From a virus (lineage: Duplodnaviria > Heunggongvirae > Uroviricota > Caudoviricetes): a stretch of 17,367 bases of DNA. Of this stretch, positions 3,019-12,039 are shown one piece after another. The first letter of the stretch is position 1. The number at the start of each line of letters is the position of its first letter. A program made the position numbers and the translations under genes. The notes under the pieces are model-generated. The model saw nothing but the letters and a program-made list of their open reading frames with translations. It ran no database searches and was not told the origin of the DNA. The DNA is taken from the IMG/VR virus record IMGVR_UViG_2606217110_000021; one strand, given 5' to 3'.

Positions 3019-3561
3019 TCAAGCCATTTTCTCAGCAAATGATTCACGCATGGGAATATATAGGGCATACTCAGCAACAGCTAACCAATTAGCAATCCGT
3101 TTTTCGCATGTGCTAAAACACCACTCTGGGTGTGCATCATTTAGCAATTCAGCCATTTTGCGCTTAGTCATCCCCCGCCCTTCATAGCGTTGCCGGAGAA
3201 TGCAAATCAATCCTGGATGCTCTGCCAGCACCTCACTTATGACTCGATCAATACATAACGCCTCTGCATCAGTACAATGCGCCAGCCAGCTCTTTTGCTT
3301 GCCGTTGATCATCTCTCGCAAAAACGCTTCCAGCTCAGCTTTCTCTATTCCCGCTTTTTTCATTCTGCGCAGGGCTTCATTAATGGCTGTTTTCGTCAGT
3401 TTTTTGGATGCCAACAACTGATTGAACATATTCCCTGACCTGCCACCGCCAATATACGACCAGCGCCCCCACATACGTAGTTTTCCCTGAATCCAGACAC
3501 TTTCCAGCGTGGTGAGGCGAAGGTGTTCTCCGCTTTTTCCTGTATTCGTTGGGTAAATCAT
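3019..3561 (-). CDS. putative late-gene antiterminator Q-like protein
   Basis: 180-aa ORF immediately upstream of the lysis region, overlapping the upstream gene by ATGA. Cys-containing C-terminal half. The assignment rests mainly on synteny with lambdoid late-control regions. Confidence 0.6.
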   Translation of the reverse strand: MIYPTNTGKSGEHLRLTTLESVWIQGKLRMWGRWSYIGGGRSGNMFNQLLASKKLTKTAINEALRRMKKAGIEKAELEAFLREMINGKQKSWLAHCTDAEALCIDRVISEVLAEHPGLICILRQRYEGRGMTKRKMAELLNDAHPEWCFSTCEKRIANWLAVAEYALYIPMRESFAEKMA

Positions 3562-3848
3562 AAATGACCTTTCTTTCTCCAGATTTCTTGTGTGCGAAAA
3601 ACCCCTTCAGCATGCATCAGGCGCAATTCTTCTTTGGTGTAATCGCTGGTTTTTACCCGCCCGTCGATTAGATCGTGGCATGAGCTACAGGCTATCGCCG
3701 CCTGCATATCGTGTGGTTTTGTCGCTGTTCCGCACGTCCCCGCCAGCCTGTAATGCGCCAGCACAGAGGTTTCGGGATTGTGATTGCAGTAGCCAGGGAT
3801 TCTGATCTGGCACATCTGGCCTTTAGCCGCTTTACGTAAATTCACCAT
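3558..3848 (-). CDS. DUF1364 (YbcO-like) putative nuclease
   Basis: 96 aa with CQIRIPGYCNHNPETSVLAHYR and IACSSCHDLID motifs, recalled from the prophage YbcO family. Translationally coupled to the flanking genes. Confidence 0.75.
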   Translation of the reverse strand: MVNLRKAAKGQMCQIRIPGYCNHNPETSVLAHYRLAGTCGTATKPHDMQAAIACSSCHDLIDGRVKTSDYTKEELRLMHAEGVFRTQEIWRKKGHL

Positions 3849-4447
3849 TACGCAAACTCCAGTAGTTGTGCGGCCACATTTTCAACTTCCTCCTGAGAGG
3901 AGAATTTACGAAACAGAATCCAGTTCCACAGCACATTCAGTACAGATTTATAAACCTGCTGAAACTCGACTTCGTCCATATTCGCAAAAGCGATGGATTT
4001 TGCCCGACGCCCACGGCTACCGTCCGGATAAATATGCTCGGTGTAAAATCCGGCCTGAATGGTTACCCACTCGCGGAAAGCCTCAAACGACTTTAGCAAC
4101 GCCGTATCCCGGGTTCTACGAGTCGCAACGGTGTTAAGGTATTGCTCTGCGGCATCACTCAGGGCTGGCGTGTGTTCCCGACCAACTGATTCGCACAGGT
4201 AATCAACGAAACCAGACAGCAGTTCTCGTTCGCGAGGCGTGATCGCCCCACCGACCGGAGTCCAGTAATCGAATCCCAGTTGCAGGAGTTTGAAAAAACG
4301 CTTGTGGAATGCGTAGTTACGCACACGCTTAAAGTCTGCGTGTATCCACTCACCTATTTTGATTTGATGCAGAAAATCGCAACTCTCCGGCGTCGCCGGG
4401 AGAAGTAAACCAGAAGAAGTTTGTTTGACCAGTTGTATATGCGCCAT
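3848..4447 (-). CDS. DUF1367-like phage protein (nin-region type)
   Basis: 199-aa ORF; its stop overlaps the downstream start. Family assignment is from memory of prophage YdfU-like proteins and is tentative. Confidence 0.65.
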   Translation of the reverse strand: MAHIQLVKQTSSGLLLPATPESCDFLHQIKIGEWIHADFKRVRNYAFHKRFFKLLQLGFDYWTPVGGAITPRERELLSGFVDYLCESVGREHTPALSDAAEQYLNTVATRRTRDTALLKSFEAFREWVTIQAGFYTEHIYPDGSRGRRAKSIAFANMDEVEFQQVYKSVLNVLWNWILFRKFSSQEEVENVAAQLLEFA

Positions 4448-6269: not shown

Positions 6270-7637
6270 TTATCTTTCTCCAACATCCTCTTCTAAAACA
6301 TGATCTATCTTATCTACAGGAAGATTATCATACTTAGAAAAATCAAAACCATCGGGAAGTTTATTTTTTGCTGCTTTTAATATTCTTATTGAATCGTTAC
6401 CGTTTCTAGAGCGATTTCGCCAATAACATTGATTGTTTTTGTTTGCTCCTTCAAGCAGGGTTAACATTTGCTCGCTTGAGTAATTAGCCAAGTCTTTGTC
6501 AATAAATCTATCAAAATATATATCGGCTCGTTCGAAATCAGCACTATTTATAAAACAAGCAATTCCAAAATCGCGATACTCTGATTCCAAACCTAATTCG
6601 CTGCAAACATTTTTAAAAATTGCCAAATGTTGCTGGTTGAGAAAATTCCCATTATCCCCGTATTTTTTGTAATATTTTTCAGATATTCTTTTTGTTACGC
6701 GATTAATGTGTTCCTCCGGCGATTCAGATATAAAAAAGGCTATTCCAAAATAAGATATGTTATCTTTTATAATAGGCTTTATGAGTTCTTTTACTGAATC
6801 ATCCAAGGCGTTATATATTTCTTTCTCCATGGAAATGAACTCAATTAGTGCCTTAATTGCATCATGGTTATTGGAAATATTGGAGTAATAAGCAGTTTCT
6901 GCTTTAACCGAGTCCACCATGGCTTGCCTGTCTTTTTCAAATATCAGTTTCATAGCTCTGATATTTATCTCTCTATTTTCTAATGGCTTAGCTTCTTCAG
7001 ATCTAAACGAAAACTTCCACAACCCCTTGAATATCTTAACTAATACTTCCTTGTTTAAAGATTTGAAATATTTAACATCTAAGTATTTTTTTAGCGCGTT
7101 ATCGGAAGGGAATAGGTCCTTTACCTTTTCTAGATCTGCAACAAATGTGGAAAGTATTTTTTGAGACATAAATGGCGGCTTGCTTAATATTACTTCTATA
7201 CTATTCCTAATGTCACTTCTAATCATTTCCTGTGTTGGCTCGAATAACGTATCTTCGTCACTTATTACGGGATGGGCAGATAAATGCCTGTGTTTTTGAA
7301 TAAGTAAAACTTTATGGTTTGAAGCAGTGTCTAATAATTGAGTTCTTTCAAAAACTCTTTTAATAAGCTCTTTTTCCCATTTAGGAGAGTAAGGATCATC
7401 GTTTTGTAGTGCTTCAATTTCTAATAATATCTTTTCCGCAACAGCATCGTTATGAACATCTCGCAGTTCTTGGAGCTTAAAAATAATATCACATACAACT
7501 ACTGACCATAGCATCACGGTAGCAGAACGGTAACAACCATTAGCATAGCTCTTATAAACCTCTTCAAAATATTTTCTAGTTCTTCTATCATAAATTTTAC
7601 TCTTCTGAGATTCTAATGAGAATATTCTAACGTCCAT
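6270..7637 (-). CDS. orphan 455-aa protein with N-terminal HEPN-like domain (Rx4H motif); candidate abortive-infection or defence RNase
   Basis: The ORF track gives 6270..7685, but the likely start is ATG at 7637 with GGAGA at 6 nt. Strongly AT-rich. The sequence [13 protein letters not shown] (nt 7272-7292) fits the HEPN Rx4-6H signature. The C-terminal ~320 aa carry no motif I can recognise. Confidence 0.8.
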
Positions 7638-7933
7638 AATTTCTCCATGAAAAATATTTAACTCAAATAATTGAATATGAATCATGTAGTCATAAATACT
7701 TCAAAATTATATTTTTAGCCCACTTAATTCATACAAAACTTCTTTAATAAACTGATTCAGGCCTCATGCATTATGCTTTTAACAAACTATCCTAACCTTC
7801 ATAGTGTAAATCTTGATGTTCAATTTTACAATACGCCAAGTTTCCGTAAATCAATGAATGCGTCGGATTTTACAATAATTTAAAAGAGATGTTGAATAGT
7901 ATCCATGAAGTGTAAGGTTAATATACCCAAAAC

Positions 7934-8463: not shown

Positions 8464-9225
8464 TCACTTTTCCGATACAACACGGCGGGAAGAATCAGTA
8501 ATTTGTCGAACAATATCCCGGTGCTTGTTCAGCTCCCGCAGCGCGGCGCAGACTCGCTCCCACTTCTGGACATGATTTTTCGCCCGACGCAGTTCACGAT
8601 TTGCCATATGCAGCGATGGTAAAATCAGGTTATCCGCTTGCGTTTCAGTAAACGATGGCAACGACTGCACAATGTCCGCCACAGTTTCTGTTTTAATATC
8701 TTCCTGTGTTGCAGCTTCCTGTACTGGTAACGCAACACCGGCTGGCTGAGGAAAGGCTTTACCATCAGTTTCCGCTACCGATGCAGCTTTCGGCTCTGCT
8801 GGTAAATTATCGCCCGGCATGCAGTAACGAAATTTACCGTTCTGATTAACGCGAATCAGACGACCTTTACTGATTGCCATTGCCAGCGTTGAAGCCACTT
8901 TGCGTGATGTGATGCCGAAAAACGTAGCCAGTTCATCCGCCGTTTGTGGGCCACGTTGTTCAATCGTCGCAGTTAAATCGCACTCCGAAATTTTTGCGAC
9001 TGTTGCCGTGGTGGTTTCTTCCGGCAGTTCTGCCTGCTCTGGCTGTTCCTGCTGAACGTTGTTATCAGCCACGCGCCAGGTGTATACGCTTTTATCAACG
9101 AAGCCAGCCTTTTTCAGTTCCCACAGCTCGTTCAGCACTTCTTCACGACTGATATCAAGTCGCGCAGCCAGTTCTACCGACGTAGCTTTCCCCATTGCTT
9201 TCAGTGCGTCAAAAACAGTCTCCAT
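8464..9225 (-). CDS. phage protein with N-terminal winged-helix-like domain and acidic linker (DUF1627-like, tentative)
   Basis: The ORF track gives 8464..9276; the likely start is ATG at 9225 ([45 protein letters not shown]) with GGGAGA upstream. This start avoids overlap with the DnaC-like gene. Confidence 0.7.
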
Positions 9226-9247: not shown

Positions 9248-9994
9248 TTACTTCGCAATTCCTGGCTGGACGACATTCGGACGCCAGCTCTCCCAGTTAA
9301 AATTCACCCATCGCCCGCCGTTCATGGTCATGCGATCCATAATCCGCTCGCCGAGCAATGTTTTCATGGCCTCATAGTTCAGGTTTGTCAGCATTCCCAC
9401 GCTACGCATCGACGCTGTCCGTCGATCAATAATCTGGTGCAGTACCACCTGCTCGTTTTTCGTCTCGCGCTGAATGCCAATTTCATCAAGAACCAGCAGA
9501 TCCACTTCGCACAGTTCCCGCAAAAATTTTTCGCCTGACTGCCCGTCGTCATAGCTGGCGTGGAGGGCACTCATAACATCAGCCACGGTAACCACAATCA
9601 CTGTCTGACCGTCTTTCAGCAGGCGATTCCCGATAGCTGCCGCTAAGTGATTCTTCCCGGTACCAGGTTTTCCGCTGAACGCAAAATTTGTACACCCGGT
9701 CATCAGTTCATCAGCGATGGATTTCGCCTGACTCAACGCGTATCGCTGCCCTTCGTTCTGCACCTGGTAATTCGAAAACGAGCATTTGCGGTGCAATGGC
9801 TGGATGCCAGAGCGATTCAGAATTTTTTCCACCCGCAACTGACGATTCTGACGGTTGATCTCCTCACAACGTTTCTGGCCTTCGGAAAGTTGCCACTCGC
9901 GCCACTCCGCTACCGTCTTGAATGGCGCGGTTACATGTGACGGGGCCAGTCTGCGGATACGTTCAAGAACGTCGCCTGTCGCAATATTTTTCAT
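9248..9994 (-). CDS. DnaC-like replication helicase loader (IstB/DnaC AAA+ family)
   Basis: Walker [14 protein letters not shown] and Walker B LLVLDEIG. Overall similarity to E. coli DnaC as recalled ([31 protein letters not shown]). Confidence 0.9.
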
Positions 9995-10000
9995 GGTCAG

Positions 10001-10789
10001 TTACCCCCTGAAGCCTGGCGGGATCGCACTATCCGGTAACGAGACGGTGTTAACCTGTCGGAGTAACGTCTCAGGTCGAACACCTTTCGGCGCGAACAAG
10101 CCCTGGTATTCGTTGGCGATGCTGTGTCGAATCACCTGCTCAGGTGAAAAACCCTGCTGGCGGAATTTTTCCAGCTCCCGTATCGCCCCGTTAGCGCCCT
10201 GCTCCGTTCGAATCGGTTTTCGCAATGCCTGCCTGAACTGAACCCACTCATGCCAGAGTGTTTCCGGCAACCAGTCAGGCAGCTCGATAGCCTCCGGTTC
10301 GAATTTTTTAGACGCTCGTTTTTGGCGAGGGGGATTTAGGGGGAGATAAGTATTTATATCTTCCTCTTTCTCTTCCTCTGGTAACGCTTTTTGATCCGTT
10401 TTTGTAACGCTGGCAGCGTTACCTTTTCGTTTCAGTTCTCGTATTTTTGTTACTCTCTCGTTTGTAACCGCCCGTTTTTTAGAGCTTTTCCCGTTATGGC
10501 GCTCAAAGTTAGGAAGCGACAACACACCATTAGTTTCGACCAGCCATCCAACCTGAATTAACGCATCAGCAAACCCAGCCATAAAAGTGATGCGATCTAT
10601 TGCACTTTTTGTAACGCCGCGAGCGTTACACTCTGCGTTACCGTCTATCATTTGTTGATCCGCCCATGCCCAGAAGCGAATGACTTTCCCTAATGCGGCA
10701 TCTGGATCAATATTCAGAATCTCAGCAAGCCTGAATATTTCCGGCTTATCCGGCGTAATAACTTCGAGCTTTATCCAGTTTGAAGCCAT
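10001..10789 (-). CDS. replication initiation protein, O-like / YdaU-like (DUF1376 N-terminus)
   Basis: 262-aa ORF directly upstream of the DnaC-like gene. Contains GTAACGC palindromes within its coding sequence, analogous to ori iterons inside lambda O. Confidence 0.8.
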   Translation of the reverse strand: MASNWIKLEVITPDKPEIFRLAEILNIDPDAALGKVIRFWAWADQQMIDGNAECNARGVTKSAIDRITFMAGFADALIQVGWLVETNGVLSLPNFERHNGKSSKKRAVTNERVTKIRELKRKGNAASVTKTDQKALPEEEKEEDINTYLPLNPPRQKRASKKFEPEAIELPDWLPETLWHEWVQFRQALRKPIRTEQGANGAIRELEKFRQQGFSPEQVIRHSIANEYQGLFAPKGVRPETLLRQVNTVSLPDSAIPPGFRG

Positions 10790-10822
10790 TTGTTTTCACC
10801 TTGTAACGCTCGCAGCGTTACA
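10380..10822. repeat. iteron-like palindromes GTAACGC(N3)AGCGTTAC x3 plus half-sites (candidate origin or operator)
   Basis: Palindromes at 10403-10422, 10611-10629 and 10803-10821, about 200 bp apart. Additional GTAAC(G/C) half-sites near 10381, 10464 and 10635. An A/T- and polypyrimidine-rich stretch lies at 10344-10380. Confidence 0.6.
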
Positions 10823-10866
10823 TTTAACTGATACCGAACAAAACAGTTCGGTACGATTAATTTCAA

Positions 10867-11289
10867 TCAATGCACTACGACAGAATCGCTAGGAGAACCG
10901 CCGCCGCTGAAATGTGCTTTACGGTAAACGGCCTGGACTGCATCATCATGCGCATCAATTGCCGTACTCAGTGCATCCTGTGCCGCCAGTAATGCACGGC
11001 GTTCCAGGGTATCGAAGATGCAGAGTCGGTGACGCAGCTCGCGAGGAAGAATTGCCAGAACCGCAGGGATCAGTTTCTGAATTTTTTCCCTTTGCGCATT
11101 CGTTTCACCTTTCAACCAACGATGATAGATATTCTGCTGATTGTTCCAGTCCTTGCCTGGTACCAGGGGCAATTCGCCGCCCCCCTGGCGCAGATATTCT
11201 TCAGTAATTGCGTTAGCGACCCACGCCTGCCCTTTTTCGGCTGCCAGGGCTAACAACACTGATTCGATGTGCTCATGCTTGATTTTCAT
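10867..11289 (-). CDS. YdaT-like protein (CII-analogue of Rac-type immunity regions)
   Basis: 140 aa, matching the length of Rac YdaT as I recall it. Start overlaps the upstream Cro-like stop (ATGA). Confidence 0.75.
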   Translation of the reverse strand: MKIKHEHIESVLLALAAEKGQAWVANAITEEYLRQGGGELPLVPGKDWNNQQNIYHRWLKGETNAQREKIQKLIPAVLAILPRELRHRLCIFDTLERRALLAAQDALSTAIDAHDDAVQAVYRKAHFSGGGSPSDSVVVH

Positions 11290-11540
11290 GAATCAACTCC
11301 CATCAGCTTTTTCGTAGTAGTTTTATTTCTGCCAATAGTTAAAATTGCATCGGCAGAAAATAATCCGTTTGATGCATGAGCGATTTTTTCAGCGTAATTT
11401 GTTTCGCCGGTATATTCTGTGCGAGGCAATTTTCCGTTATCCATCCATTTGTAGATTGCTCTTTGGCTGACACCACAAACGTCGGCCACAACAGAAACGC
11501 GAACAGTTTTGATTACATCTTCAAGTGTTTTCTGGTTCAT
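11286..11540 (-). CDS. YdaS-like Cro-type HTH regulator
   Basis: The ORF track gives 11286..11612; the likely start is ATG at 11540 (MNQKTLEDV...) with GAGGGTG at 5 nt. HTH-like segment VADVCGVSQRAIYKW. Divergent from the repressor gene. Confidence 0.75.
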   Translation of the reverse strand: MNQKTLEDVIKTVRVSVVADVCGVSQRAIYKWMDNGKLPRTEYTGETNYAEKIAHASNGLFSADAILTIGRNKTTTKKLMGVDS

Positions 11541-11619
11541 ATCACCCTCACAATGTGAACTTTGAGTACATGCTATAACAGAACTGACAGTACATTCAAG
11601 AGCGAATATCATTGAACTT
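11541..11619. promoter_or_regulatory. divergent promoter/operator region between Cro-like and repressor genes
   Basis: 79-bp intergenic region with palindrome TCACAaTGTGA (11548-11558) and two direct AGTACAT repeats (11565-11571 and 11589-11595). Confidence 0.5.
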
Positions 11620-12039
11620 ATGGTTCATGAAGATAAAGCGCGTAAAGAGTTCGCCAGTAGGCTTGCGCTAGCCTGTGAAAACGCTGGTTATGAACAACAT
11701 GGAAGGCAGGCAGAAATTGCCCGTCGAATGAAATTAACACCAAAAGCGGTTAGCAAATGGTTTAATGGTGAAACAATTCCTCGCCGAGAGAAATTAAGGG
11801 AATTAGCAACACTCATTGGAACAACACCAACCTATCTTTTGGGAGAGGATACAGAAGAAAGTGGACAGATACGTTTCTATCAGGAGTTAAATCCAAGACA
11901 AAAAATCATCATTGACCTTCTGGACGAGCTCCCTGACAGTGAGACAGATGAACTTTTAAAAACTCTTGAGGAGAAAAAACAGAAGTACAATGCAATTTAC
12001 GAAGAGTTAGCACGAAAGAAAAAACAAAAAGCCTCTTAA
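11620..12039 (+). CDS. RacR-like prophage repressor (XRE-family HTH)
   Basis: 139 aa. HTH segment GRQAEIARRMKLTPKAVSKWFNGETIPRREKLRELA. Divergent arrangement with the Cro-like gene. No obvious SD, so possibly leaderless. Confidence 0.8.
   Translation: MVHEDKARKEFASRLALACENAGYEQHGRQAEIARRMKLTPKAVSKWFNGETIPRREKLRELATLIGTTPTYLLGEDTEESGQIRFYQELNPRQKIIIDLLDELPDSETDELLKTLEEKKQKYNAIYEELARKKKQKAS

Follow-up and report, generated by a model that had tools for sequence, protein, structure and literature searches.

Conserved GTAACGC palindromes in and upstream of a prophage replication initiator gene as probable initiator-binding sites of a lambda-style origin

The window analysed here, the whole stretch of 17,367 nucleotides (nt) in IMG/VR virus record IMGVR_UViG_2606217110_000021, comes from a virus of the Caudoviricetes and encodes, on its minus strand, a replication initiator of 262 residues. 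Three 19-bp palindromes of the form GTAACGC-N5-GCGTTAC, all found with 0 mismatches in a motif scan of the window, lie within this gene and immediately upstream of it, accompanied by additional half-sites and a purine tract. As argued below, these palindromes are probably binding sites for the N-terminal domain of the initiator, and the sites in the segment coding for the interdomain linker would form with the tract a lambda-style origin inside the gene. The region is a common lambdoid prophage module of E. coli, with at least 80% of the 2.2 kb between 9900 and 12100 present in 450 of 5,426 complete genomes, and the initiator is identical in the Escherichia phage records vB_EcoS-673R7 and vB_EcoS-666R9, which we count as a sign of activity. 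The gene and its sites, listed in the direction of transcription, are as follows:

10803-10821: upstream palindrome GTAACGCTCGCAGCGTTAC, exact match (8+3+8), 14 nt 5' of the initiator ATG
10001-10789, minus strand: replication initiator, 262 residues, PHROG 2509 'replication initiation protein'
10635-10641: extra half-site of cluster A, GGTAACGC on the gene strand, codons Gly50-Asn-Ala, 12 nt from the cluster A palindrome
10611-10629: cluster A palindrome GTAACGCCGCGAGCGTTAC, exact match (7+5+7), gene nt 161-179, codons Cys-Asn-Ala-Arg-Gly-Val-Thr
10464-10468 and 10449-10453: degenerate half-sites GTAAC and GTTAC, weak candidates that resemble remnants of the tandem half-site array of relatives
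10404-10422: linker-cluster palindrome GTAACGCTGGCAGCGTTAC, exact match (8+3+8), gene nt 368-386
10380-10387: half-site GGTAACGC, on the gene strand GCGTTACC, encoding Ala-Leu-Pro and directly abutting the purine tract
10345-10379: candidate DNA-unwinding element, AGAGGAAGAGAAAGAGGAAGA plus TATAAATAC, encoding EEEKEEDINT and adjoining the half-site at 10380-10387

A preliminary description of this DNA had reported three near-perfect GTAACGC palindromes about 200 bp apart, two of them within the initiator gene and one in the 77-bp spacer upstream. The sites are indeed there, and they are perfect: their centres are 207 and 192 bp apart, those at 10404-10422 and 10611-10629 are inside the open reading frame 10001-10789, and the third occupies the 77-bp gap between the initiator ATG (10789) and the stop codon of the ydaT-like gene (10867), where the Shine-Dalgarno sequence AAGGTG adjoins it. 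The formula that the description gave, GTAACGC(N3)AGCGTTAC, is 18 bp long (7+N3+8), one base short of the true 19-bp sites, and has 0 matches. The additional half-sites that it mentioned were recovered at 10380-10387 and 10635-10641, with weaker ones at 10449-10453 and 10464-10468, and so was the neighbouring A/T- and pyrimidine-rich stretch, which consists of an uninterrupted 21-nt pyrimidine run on the plus strand at 10359-10379 (homopurine AGAGGAAGAGAAAGAGGAAGA on the gene strand) beside the A/T-rich TATAAATAC (about 10346-10359).

The clustering of GTAACGC is real and far above chance. The heptamer occurs 10 times in the 17.4-kb window against 1.77 expected, a count reached in 0 of 200 shuffles, and eight of the 10 copies fall within the 441 bp from 10381 to 10821. 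The hexamer TGTAAC alone is found in the window at chance frequency and 5-6-mers by themselves are uninformative, so the degenerate half-sites at 10449-10468 are listed as remnants only. Both intragenic palindromes are in the same reading frame (tGT AAC GCn nnn nGC GTT ACa) and encode x-N-A-x-x-V-T.

The initiator matches phrog_2509 over its full length (E=4.7e-88, residues 1-262 on profile positions 1-277) and consists of an N-terminal domain of about 100 residues, predicted to be winged-helix-like, a linker encoded by the proposed origin, and a C-terminal DnaT-like domain. Neither the whole initiator nor residues 1-125 matched a Pfam family at E<=0.01, NCBIfam gave nothing for the N-terminal domain, and a precomputed Pfam domain covered the N-terminal region in 0 of 120 homologues among the matches listed. 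The name 'O-like' previously given to the protein suits only a part of it, since residues 76-236 alone match phrog_678 'O-like' but the N-terminal half is no homologue of lambda O (no Pfam match, and a probability of 0.24% in hhalign). Similarity to the C-terminal domain of DnaT was found for residues 170-262 (PDB 2ru8, E=1.6e-4; 9zbt, E=5.9e-4). With the NCBIfam DnaT model the match is confined to the tail and scores far below the cut-off, so that the sequence of this part indicates a domain resemblance to DnaT and not membership of the DnaT equivalog.

For the family-wide comparison we used 240 IMG/VR loci from three profile-seeded scans, with gene starts located by tblastn, and reduced them to 76 representatives below 85% identity, including 48 of class A and 27 of class B; a first homologue search had returned only short fragments of at most 212 residues. 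The N-terminal domains of TL-2011b and BUCT554 are about 65% identical to that of the window, and those of Xanthomonas CP2, Pseudomonas VW-6S and PAN70, Ralstonia YL1 and others are 35-49% identical. All the phage relatives examined first carry the same motif at the same two gene positions, and the 48 class A homologues, from entero-, Pseudomonas, Xanthomonas and Ralstonia phages, have a half-site at codons 50-58 and in the interdomain linker. The sites are thus conserved in relatives of the window, neither absent nor unconserved. The two main classes differ as follows:

Class A, 48 loci: GTAACG, 12.5 per kb inside gene nt -120 to +430 and 0.33 per kb outside, with peaks at nt 140-200 and 320-420
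Class B (SPN1S/epsilon15-like), 27 loci: GTCCGC, 12.3 per kb inside nt -120 to +430 and 0.55 per kb outside, with peaks at nt 40-110 and 280-400

A third lineage, marine/Vibrio (8 loci), has GTCAC in both clusters. GTAACG and GTCCGC are each at background in the other class, though classes A and B share enterobacterial hosts; across the loci compared, the motif switches with the lineage of the N-terminal domain, and does so in both clusters together. The genes upstream vary in the family (YdaT-like, KilAC antirepressor, methylases, Roi-like, small unknown proteins), as do those downstream (DnaC/IstB-like, lambda-P-like PF06992, DUF6475, DUF1064) and the C-terminal domains themselves, which leaves the N-terminal domain as the sole constant partner of the sites by sequence comparison. 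A list of the class-specific residues of the initiator showed no clear recognition surface, partly because some of these residues are encoded by the sites. The family is very large: searching with a profile of its N-terminal region gives 10,204 clusters (50% identity) at E<=1e-3 and, at E<=1e-30, 4,033. Among 141 top representatives the GNA..V[TS] imprint is present in 128, and LP-x-EE or EEKRRE in about half.

Alignment of the linker-coding DNA revealed an architecture common to class A, class B and the Vibrio class, in which two to six direct half-sites are followed by one or two inverted half-sites. The consensus of the half-site is (G)GTAACGC(T) in class A and (T)GTCCGC(A)(T) in class B; the direct half-sites of class A (GGTAACGnnnnn) have a period of 12 nt and those of class B one of 11 nt. 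Neighbouring half-sites are 11-12 bp apart, centre to centre, in both clusters of the two classes, that is about one helical turn, and would therefore lie on the same face of the helix. The last half-site of the linker, GCGTTACC (encoding A-L-P), runs straight into a homopurine tract, TAGAGAAGAGAAGAGAAGA (encoding R-E-E-K-R-R-E). Purine tracts of this kind (AGAGAAGAGAAGAG..., AGAGAAGAGAAG-type) directly follow the last half-site in all three classes, and the junction GCGTTACC + AGAGAAGAG is kept throughout the family. A composite signature, GCGTTACC-WR-GAGAAGAGAAGAG, was found in 113 IMG/VR contigs; wherever this could be evaluated, in 74 of 74 cases, the N-terminal domain of the family is encoded just upstream of it.

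The array of the window is a reduced version of this arrangement, with two degenerate half-sites, the palindrome at 10404-10422, the half-site at 10380-10387 and then AGAGGAAGAGAAAGAGGAAGA-TATAAATAC; an equivalent of the palindrome exists in all class A homologues at gene nt ~356-395. Between 10340 and 10480 the GC content is 0.35-0.45 and the AT skew is strongly negative. The earlier view that the sites are dispersed and not tandem fits the cluster at codons 50-58 and the upstream palindrome, but not the linker site, which belongs to a tandem array found family-wide with 11-12 bp phasing. As a separate observation, many family members carry an inverted repeat of the form C5-6...G5-6, e.g. CCCCCCTTACCCCCCAAGGGGA, right after the purine tract, where it encodes P-P-L-x-P-P; its counterpart in the window is only CCCCCTAAATCCCCC, a direct and not an inverted repeat. 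The inverted repeat of these members resembles one situated beyond the A+T-rich region of lambda.

Codon choice at the sites indicates selection on the DNA itself. Gly50 is encoded by GGT in 48 of 48 class A homologues, whereas elsewhere in these genes GGT makes up 16% of the Gly codons (Fisher p=2e-35), and its share at four further invariant glycines of the domain is 0-33%. The Val of cluster A is GTT in 45/48, against a background of 22%, the three exceptions being cases in which the regular expression caught a neighbouring Val, and its Asn is AAC in 48/48, against 65%. The fixation of these codons holds across loci of 37-67% GC, and phages of high GC content (60-67%) use TTA for the following Leu where another GCGTTAC half-site overlaps it. 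In 39 close E. coli variants, 13 of 15 spacer positions of the palindromes are polymorphic, compared with 15 of 56 arm positions (mostly singletons) and 45% of positions elsewhere. The spacers themselves (10810-10814, 10618-10622 and 10411-10415) are more variable than the rest of the region.

Cluster A is universal in the family but is located at different codons, 50-58 in class A and 19-35 in class B. This difference suggests that selection favours a second cluster of sites 200-280 bp from the core and not a particular peptide. In the subgroup of the window prophage, a 4-codon insertion duplicated the half-site and gave rise to GNAECNARGVT, the source of the half-site at 10635-10641. This copy is missing from many close variants (17 of the 39 differ at position 153) and appears to be dispensable. 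In an AlphaFold model of residues 1-125 (predicted local distance difference test, pLDDT, 78), residues 49-55 (window 10625-10645) are the sole segment below 50, and these are the residues encoded by the cluster A sites, which seem in the model to be accommodated in a tolerant, disordered loop.

The upstream palindrome has a narrower distribution, as it is found only in an enterobacterial subgroup (8-9 of the 48 class A loci), 19-99 nt before the ATG. It occurs behind four different upstream genes, which argues that it travels with the initiator module and not with ydaT, and it is absent where the genes overlap. A crude consensus scan found no sigma-70-like promoter near 10803-10821 on the gene strand, where transcription probably reads through from the early promoter. 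The terminator-like hits of the scan were discarded, since they lie on the antisense strand and reflect no more than the palindromes with T runs behind them. The upstream palindrome is probably an auxiliary initiator site, possibly for autoregulation or for anchoring of the origin complex. Downstream of the ydaT-like gene and before the palindrome, an inverted repeat with an 8-bp stem, TACCGAAC-N6-GTTCGGTA, is present at 10832-10853; the hairpin is predicted to be stable in the transcript and has no U-run on the gene strand, unlike a classic intrinsic terminator.

The genes around the initiator are all on the minus strand except the repressor-like gene:

9248-9994, minus strand: DnaC-like helicase loader YdaV, directly downstream of the initiator gene
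10867-11289, minus strand: YdaT/CII-like protein
11286-11612, minus strand: Cro-like helix-turn-helix protein
11620-12039, plus strand: DicA-like repressor

YdaV matches PF01695 IstB (E=3.9e-20), NF009043 (E=6e-153), the DnaC equivalog (E=6e-92) and phrog_50, and is the presumed partner recruited by the C-terminal domain of the initiator.

The closest known arrangement is that of lambda. The lambda origin, in the middle of the O gene, has four inverted repeats to which dimers of O bind and, after them, a 40-bp A+T-rich region where the DNA opens (PMC5043065, PMC7466680); the lambda record annotates four ori iterons at O gene nt 349-433, with an A-rich purine tract after them. Similarly, the proposed origin of the window is in the linker-coding segment of the initiator gene (nt ~320-410, against 349-433 in O), its sites are of 18-19 bp with dyad symmetry, and a purine-skewed, A-rich tract is next to them on the coding strand. 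The gene is also part of an early rightward operon, after cro- and cII-like genes, and is followed by that of a helicase loader, which in relatives is lambda-P-like, DnaC-like or other. The differences are equally clear. The N-terminal domain has no detectable relation to O (no PF04492 match, and a probability of 0.24% for the family profile against lambda O in hhalign), the family uses 8-bp half-sites, direct and inverted, at a spacing of 11-12 bp, and the loader here is DnaC-like and not P, together with a DnaT-like C-terminal domain. Moreover, the family has a second conserved cluster about 200-280 bp upstream, in the region coding for the N-terminal domain, and in some members a third site, whereas the lambda record annotates no sites of a second cluster. 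The best reading of these comparisons is that the system would work like ori-lambda and O, yet the initiator is no member of the O family.

The iteron plasmids (F RepE, P1 RepA, pSC101 RepA, RK2 TrfA) also have helically phased initiator sites beside an unwinding element, and use the same sequence as direct repeats for initiation and as inverted repeats near the start of rep for autorepression by dimers (PMC5043065). In contrast, the sites of the window are within coding sequence and not in an intergenic oriV, their half-site period is 11-12 bp and not ~22 bp, no DnaA boxes were found near them and no promoter was detected at the upstream palindrome, and the initiator has no sequence homology to the Rep_3 or RepA families.

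In the Rac prophage of E. coli K-12 the same slot is present (ydaS-ydaT-ydaU-ydaV), with a near-identical C-terminal half of the initiator and a DnaC-like YdaV, but the YdaU protein of Rac has a DUF1376 N-terminal domain and its gene has no GTAACGC sites. DNA homology between the initiator gene and K-12 ydaU starts at gene nt ~416 (80% identity) and rises to 97% from nt 532 to the end. This alignment indicates that the N-terminal domain and its sites have been swapped together as a module, the junction falling at the purine tract, right after the half-sites. Rac has been reported to have an active origin, oriJ (PMC3945230). In K-12 ydaU (NC_000913.3 1418000-1423500, ydaU at 3120-3977) we noticed TGTTCA/TGAACA at gene nt -21, 149, 360, 393, 426 and 453, that is 6 copies in ~480 nt against ~0.2 expected. 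The layout of these repeats (upstream, N-terminal coding region, linker) matches that of GTAACGC, although the motif differs and DUF1376 is non-homologous. We infer from this layout that the TGTTCA repeats may be the iterons of oriJ.

The fourth comparison is with the boxes of YdaT, inverted repeats of the same operon in Rac and CP-933P, one of which lies over a start codon. The footprinted box, TTGATT-N6-AATCAA, overlaps the ydaT start codon in Rac (PMC11879457, PMC9986795), and the tetrameric binder can bridge distant sites (PMC11879457). Its sequence is different from GTAACGC-N5-GCGTTAC. The window has its own copies of this box: a perfect one, TTGATTTTCATGAATCAA, at 11279-11296 over the ydaT start codon, one with 2 mismatches, ACGATTAATTTCAATCAA, at 10853-10870 over the ydaT stop codon and 30 bp from the upstream palindrome, and another with 2 mismatches at 8842-8859.

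Taken together, the conserved positions in 48 homologues, the selection on codons, the co-variation of motif and lineage and the purine tract give strong comparative support to the earlier suggestion that these are origin iterons bound by the initiator within its own gene. In the model that we regard as probable, the origin core would comprise the palindrome at 10404-10422, the half-site at 10380-10387, the degenerate half-sites at 10449-10468 and the tract at 10345-10379, all within the coding sequence for the flexible linker that joins the two domains of the protein. Protomers of the initiator would fill the half-sites about one helical turn apart, with dimers on the palindromes; the resulting nucleoprotein complex would strain and open the purine tract, and the DnaT-like C-terminal domain would then recruit the DnaC-like loader YdaV with the host DnaB. 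The sites at 10611-10641 and 10803-10821 would be extra sites for the same initiator, ~200 and ~400 bp from the core, which most likely join the complex by looping or wrapping, and alternatively or additionally may let the initiator throttle its own expression.

Several points weigh against this model. The purine tract is only moderately A/T-rich (GC ~0.38), and nearby windows of 40 nt are equally so. The linkage of the composite signature to the gene is partly circular, as the signature is itself coding sequence of the initiator gene. The model has no need of DnaA or of integration host factor (IHF), and extra support from either is lacking, no DnaA box having been found near the sites and no IHF consensus anywhere in the window.

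We also considered a bolder form of the same model, which as a whole we put forward tentatively, as conceivable but somewhat less than probable. According to it, the origin of the family would be an overlapping code in which the iterons and the unwinding element dictate the peptides G-N-A..V-T, (G-N-x-x)n, A-L-P and E-E-K-R-R-E. It would be obligatorily bi- or tripartite, and its clusters, ~200-280 bp apart, would have to meet through looping, wrapping or handcuffing if the origin is to fire or its copy number to be controlled; the same layout would have arisen independently with the DUF1376 initiator of K-12 Rac at the presumed oriJ.

Other explanations of the palindromes have to be weighed against an origin. 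They might be operators only, at which an initiator dimer represses or roadblocks its own transcription or translation, the origin being elsewhere. The position of the upstream palindrome, 14 nt from the ATG and adjoining the Shine-Dalgarno sequence, is suggestive of this, inverted repeats suit dimers, and plasmid dimers of the RepE type autorepress at such repeats (PMC5043065). The upstream site, however, is missing from 39 of the 48 class A members and from class B altogether, whereas the intragenic clusters occur throughout the family; the crude scan found no sigma-70-like promoter near it on the gene strand, and a purine tract invariably adjoins the linker cluster, which lies where lambda has its origin, a feature that an operator alone would not require. 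We consider it unlikely that the sites are operators and nothing else. The two roles are not mutually exclusive, and the dual regulatory role suggested in the preliminary description may still apply to the upstream palindrome, although no promoter was found there. It is more doubtful still that another protein is the binder, either the YdaT/CII-like, Cro-like or DicA-like protein of the prophage or a host factor. The ydaT gene is directly upstream, and tetramers of YdaT bind inverted repeats and can bridge two distant ones (PMC11879457), but the published box TTGATT-N6-AATCAA, perfect over the ydaT ATG at 11279-11296, is unrelated to GTAACGC, so that the proposal of YdaT as the binder finds no support. 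Phages that lack ydaT and differ in neighbouring genes and immunity region also keep the GTAACGC sites, and a host factor is hard to reconcile with motifs that differ between lineages sharing E. coli and Salmonella as hosts.

The palindromes could also act in RNA, as hairpins that control the stability or translation of the initiator message. Two stable hairpins are predicted in the transcript of 10770-10880 (minimum free energy -30 kcal/mol, z = -3.0), one of them including the upstream palindrome 5' of the Shine-Dalgarno sequence, but any DNA palindrome trivially gives a stable fold. The arms are invariant in homologues of 35-100% identity, with no compensatory change (the pairs do not vary), many members carry the half-site as direct repeats at 11-12 nt, which are unable to pair, and where a lineage has another motif, it differs as a whole and in both clusters together; a role as hairpins in place of DNA sites is accordingly very improbable. 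Least likely of all is that the motif has no function in DNA and is a by-product of the G-N-A..V-T peptide or of chance. The shared frame of the intragenic palindromes, encoding xNAxxVT, and the GNA..V[TS] peptide of 128/141 representatives would be in keeping with a constraint on the protein. Nevertheless, synonymous positions are fixed (GGT in 48/48, GTT in 45/48, TTA for Leu in hosts of 60-67% GC) where other invariant Gly and Val positions of the domain use mixed codons, the motif recurs in non-coding DNA upstream, within the N-terminal model only the cluster A peptide falls below a pLDDT of 50 and so looks like a tolerant loop, and the heptamer count was reached in none of the 200 shuffles. 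The codon tests effectively refute this explanation.

A lambda-style origin read by the N-terminal domain would supply a replication module that is among the commonest in temperate phages of Proteobacteria, many E. coli and Shigella prophages included, with a concrete origin and a recognition code, GTAACGC, GTCCGC and GTCAC each being paired with an initiator lineage of its own. The three specificity classes would be natural swap experiments for how the domain reads DNA, and the conserved second cluster, which the lambda paradigm lacks, points to an unstudied origin geometry. In these genes a function of the DNA appears to shape the protein, as codon choice, the 4-codon insertion and whole linker motifs would be set by the sites and the unwinding tract. 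The signature could also serve for origin annotation in thousands of phage genomes and for the construction of compatible replicons derived from phages. We see the main value of the work in the family-wide origin code and in the overlapping constraint on DNA and protein. A search of the open-access literature turned up no account of these sites or this origin, and older subscription literature may hold one; papers on Eru were considered as a prior description and rejected, as they deal with other replication modules.

Finally, some features of the window outside the initiator gene deserve mention. On the minus strand, 6270-7685 is an open reading frame of 471 residues with no Pfam family at E<=0.01. 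By open reading frame calling, the Cro-like and DicA-like genes start 7 bp apart. The start of the Cro-like gene is more likely the ATG at 11541, with GAGGGTGAT as ribosome-binding site, and would leave a divergent control region of ~78 bp (11541-11620), in which repeated GTACAT and TGAACTT motifs are candidate operators.

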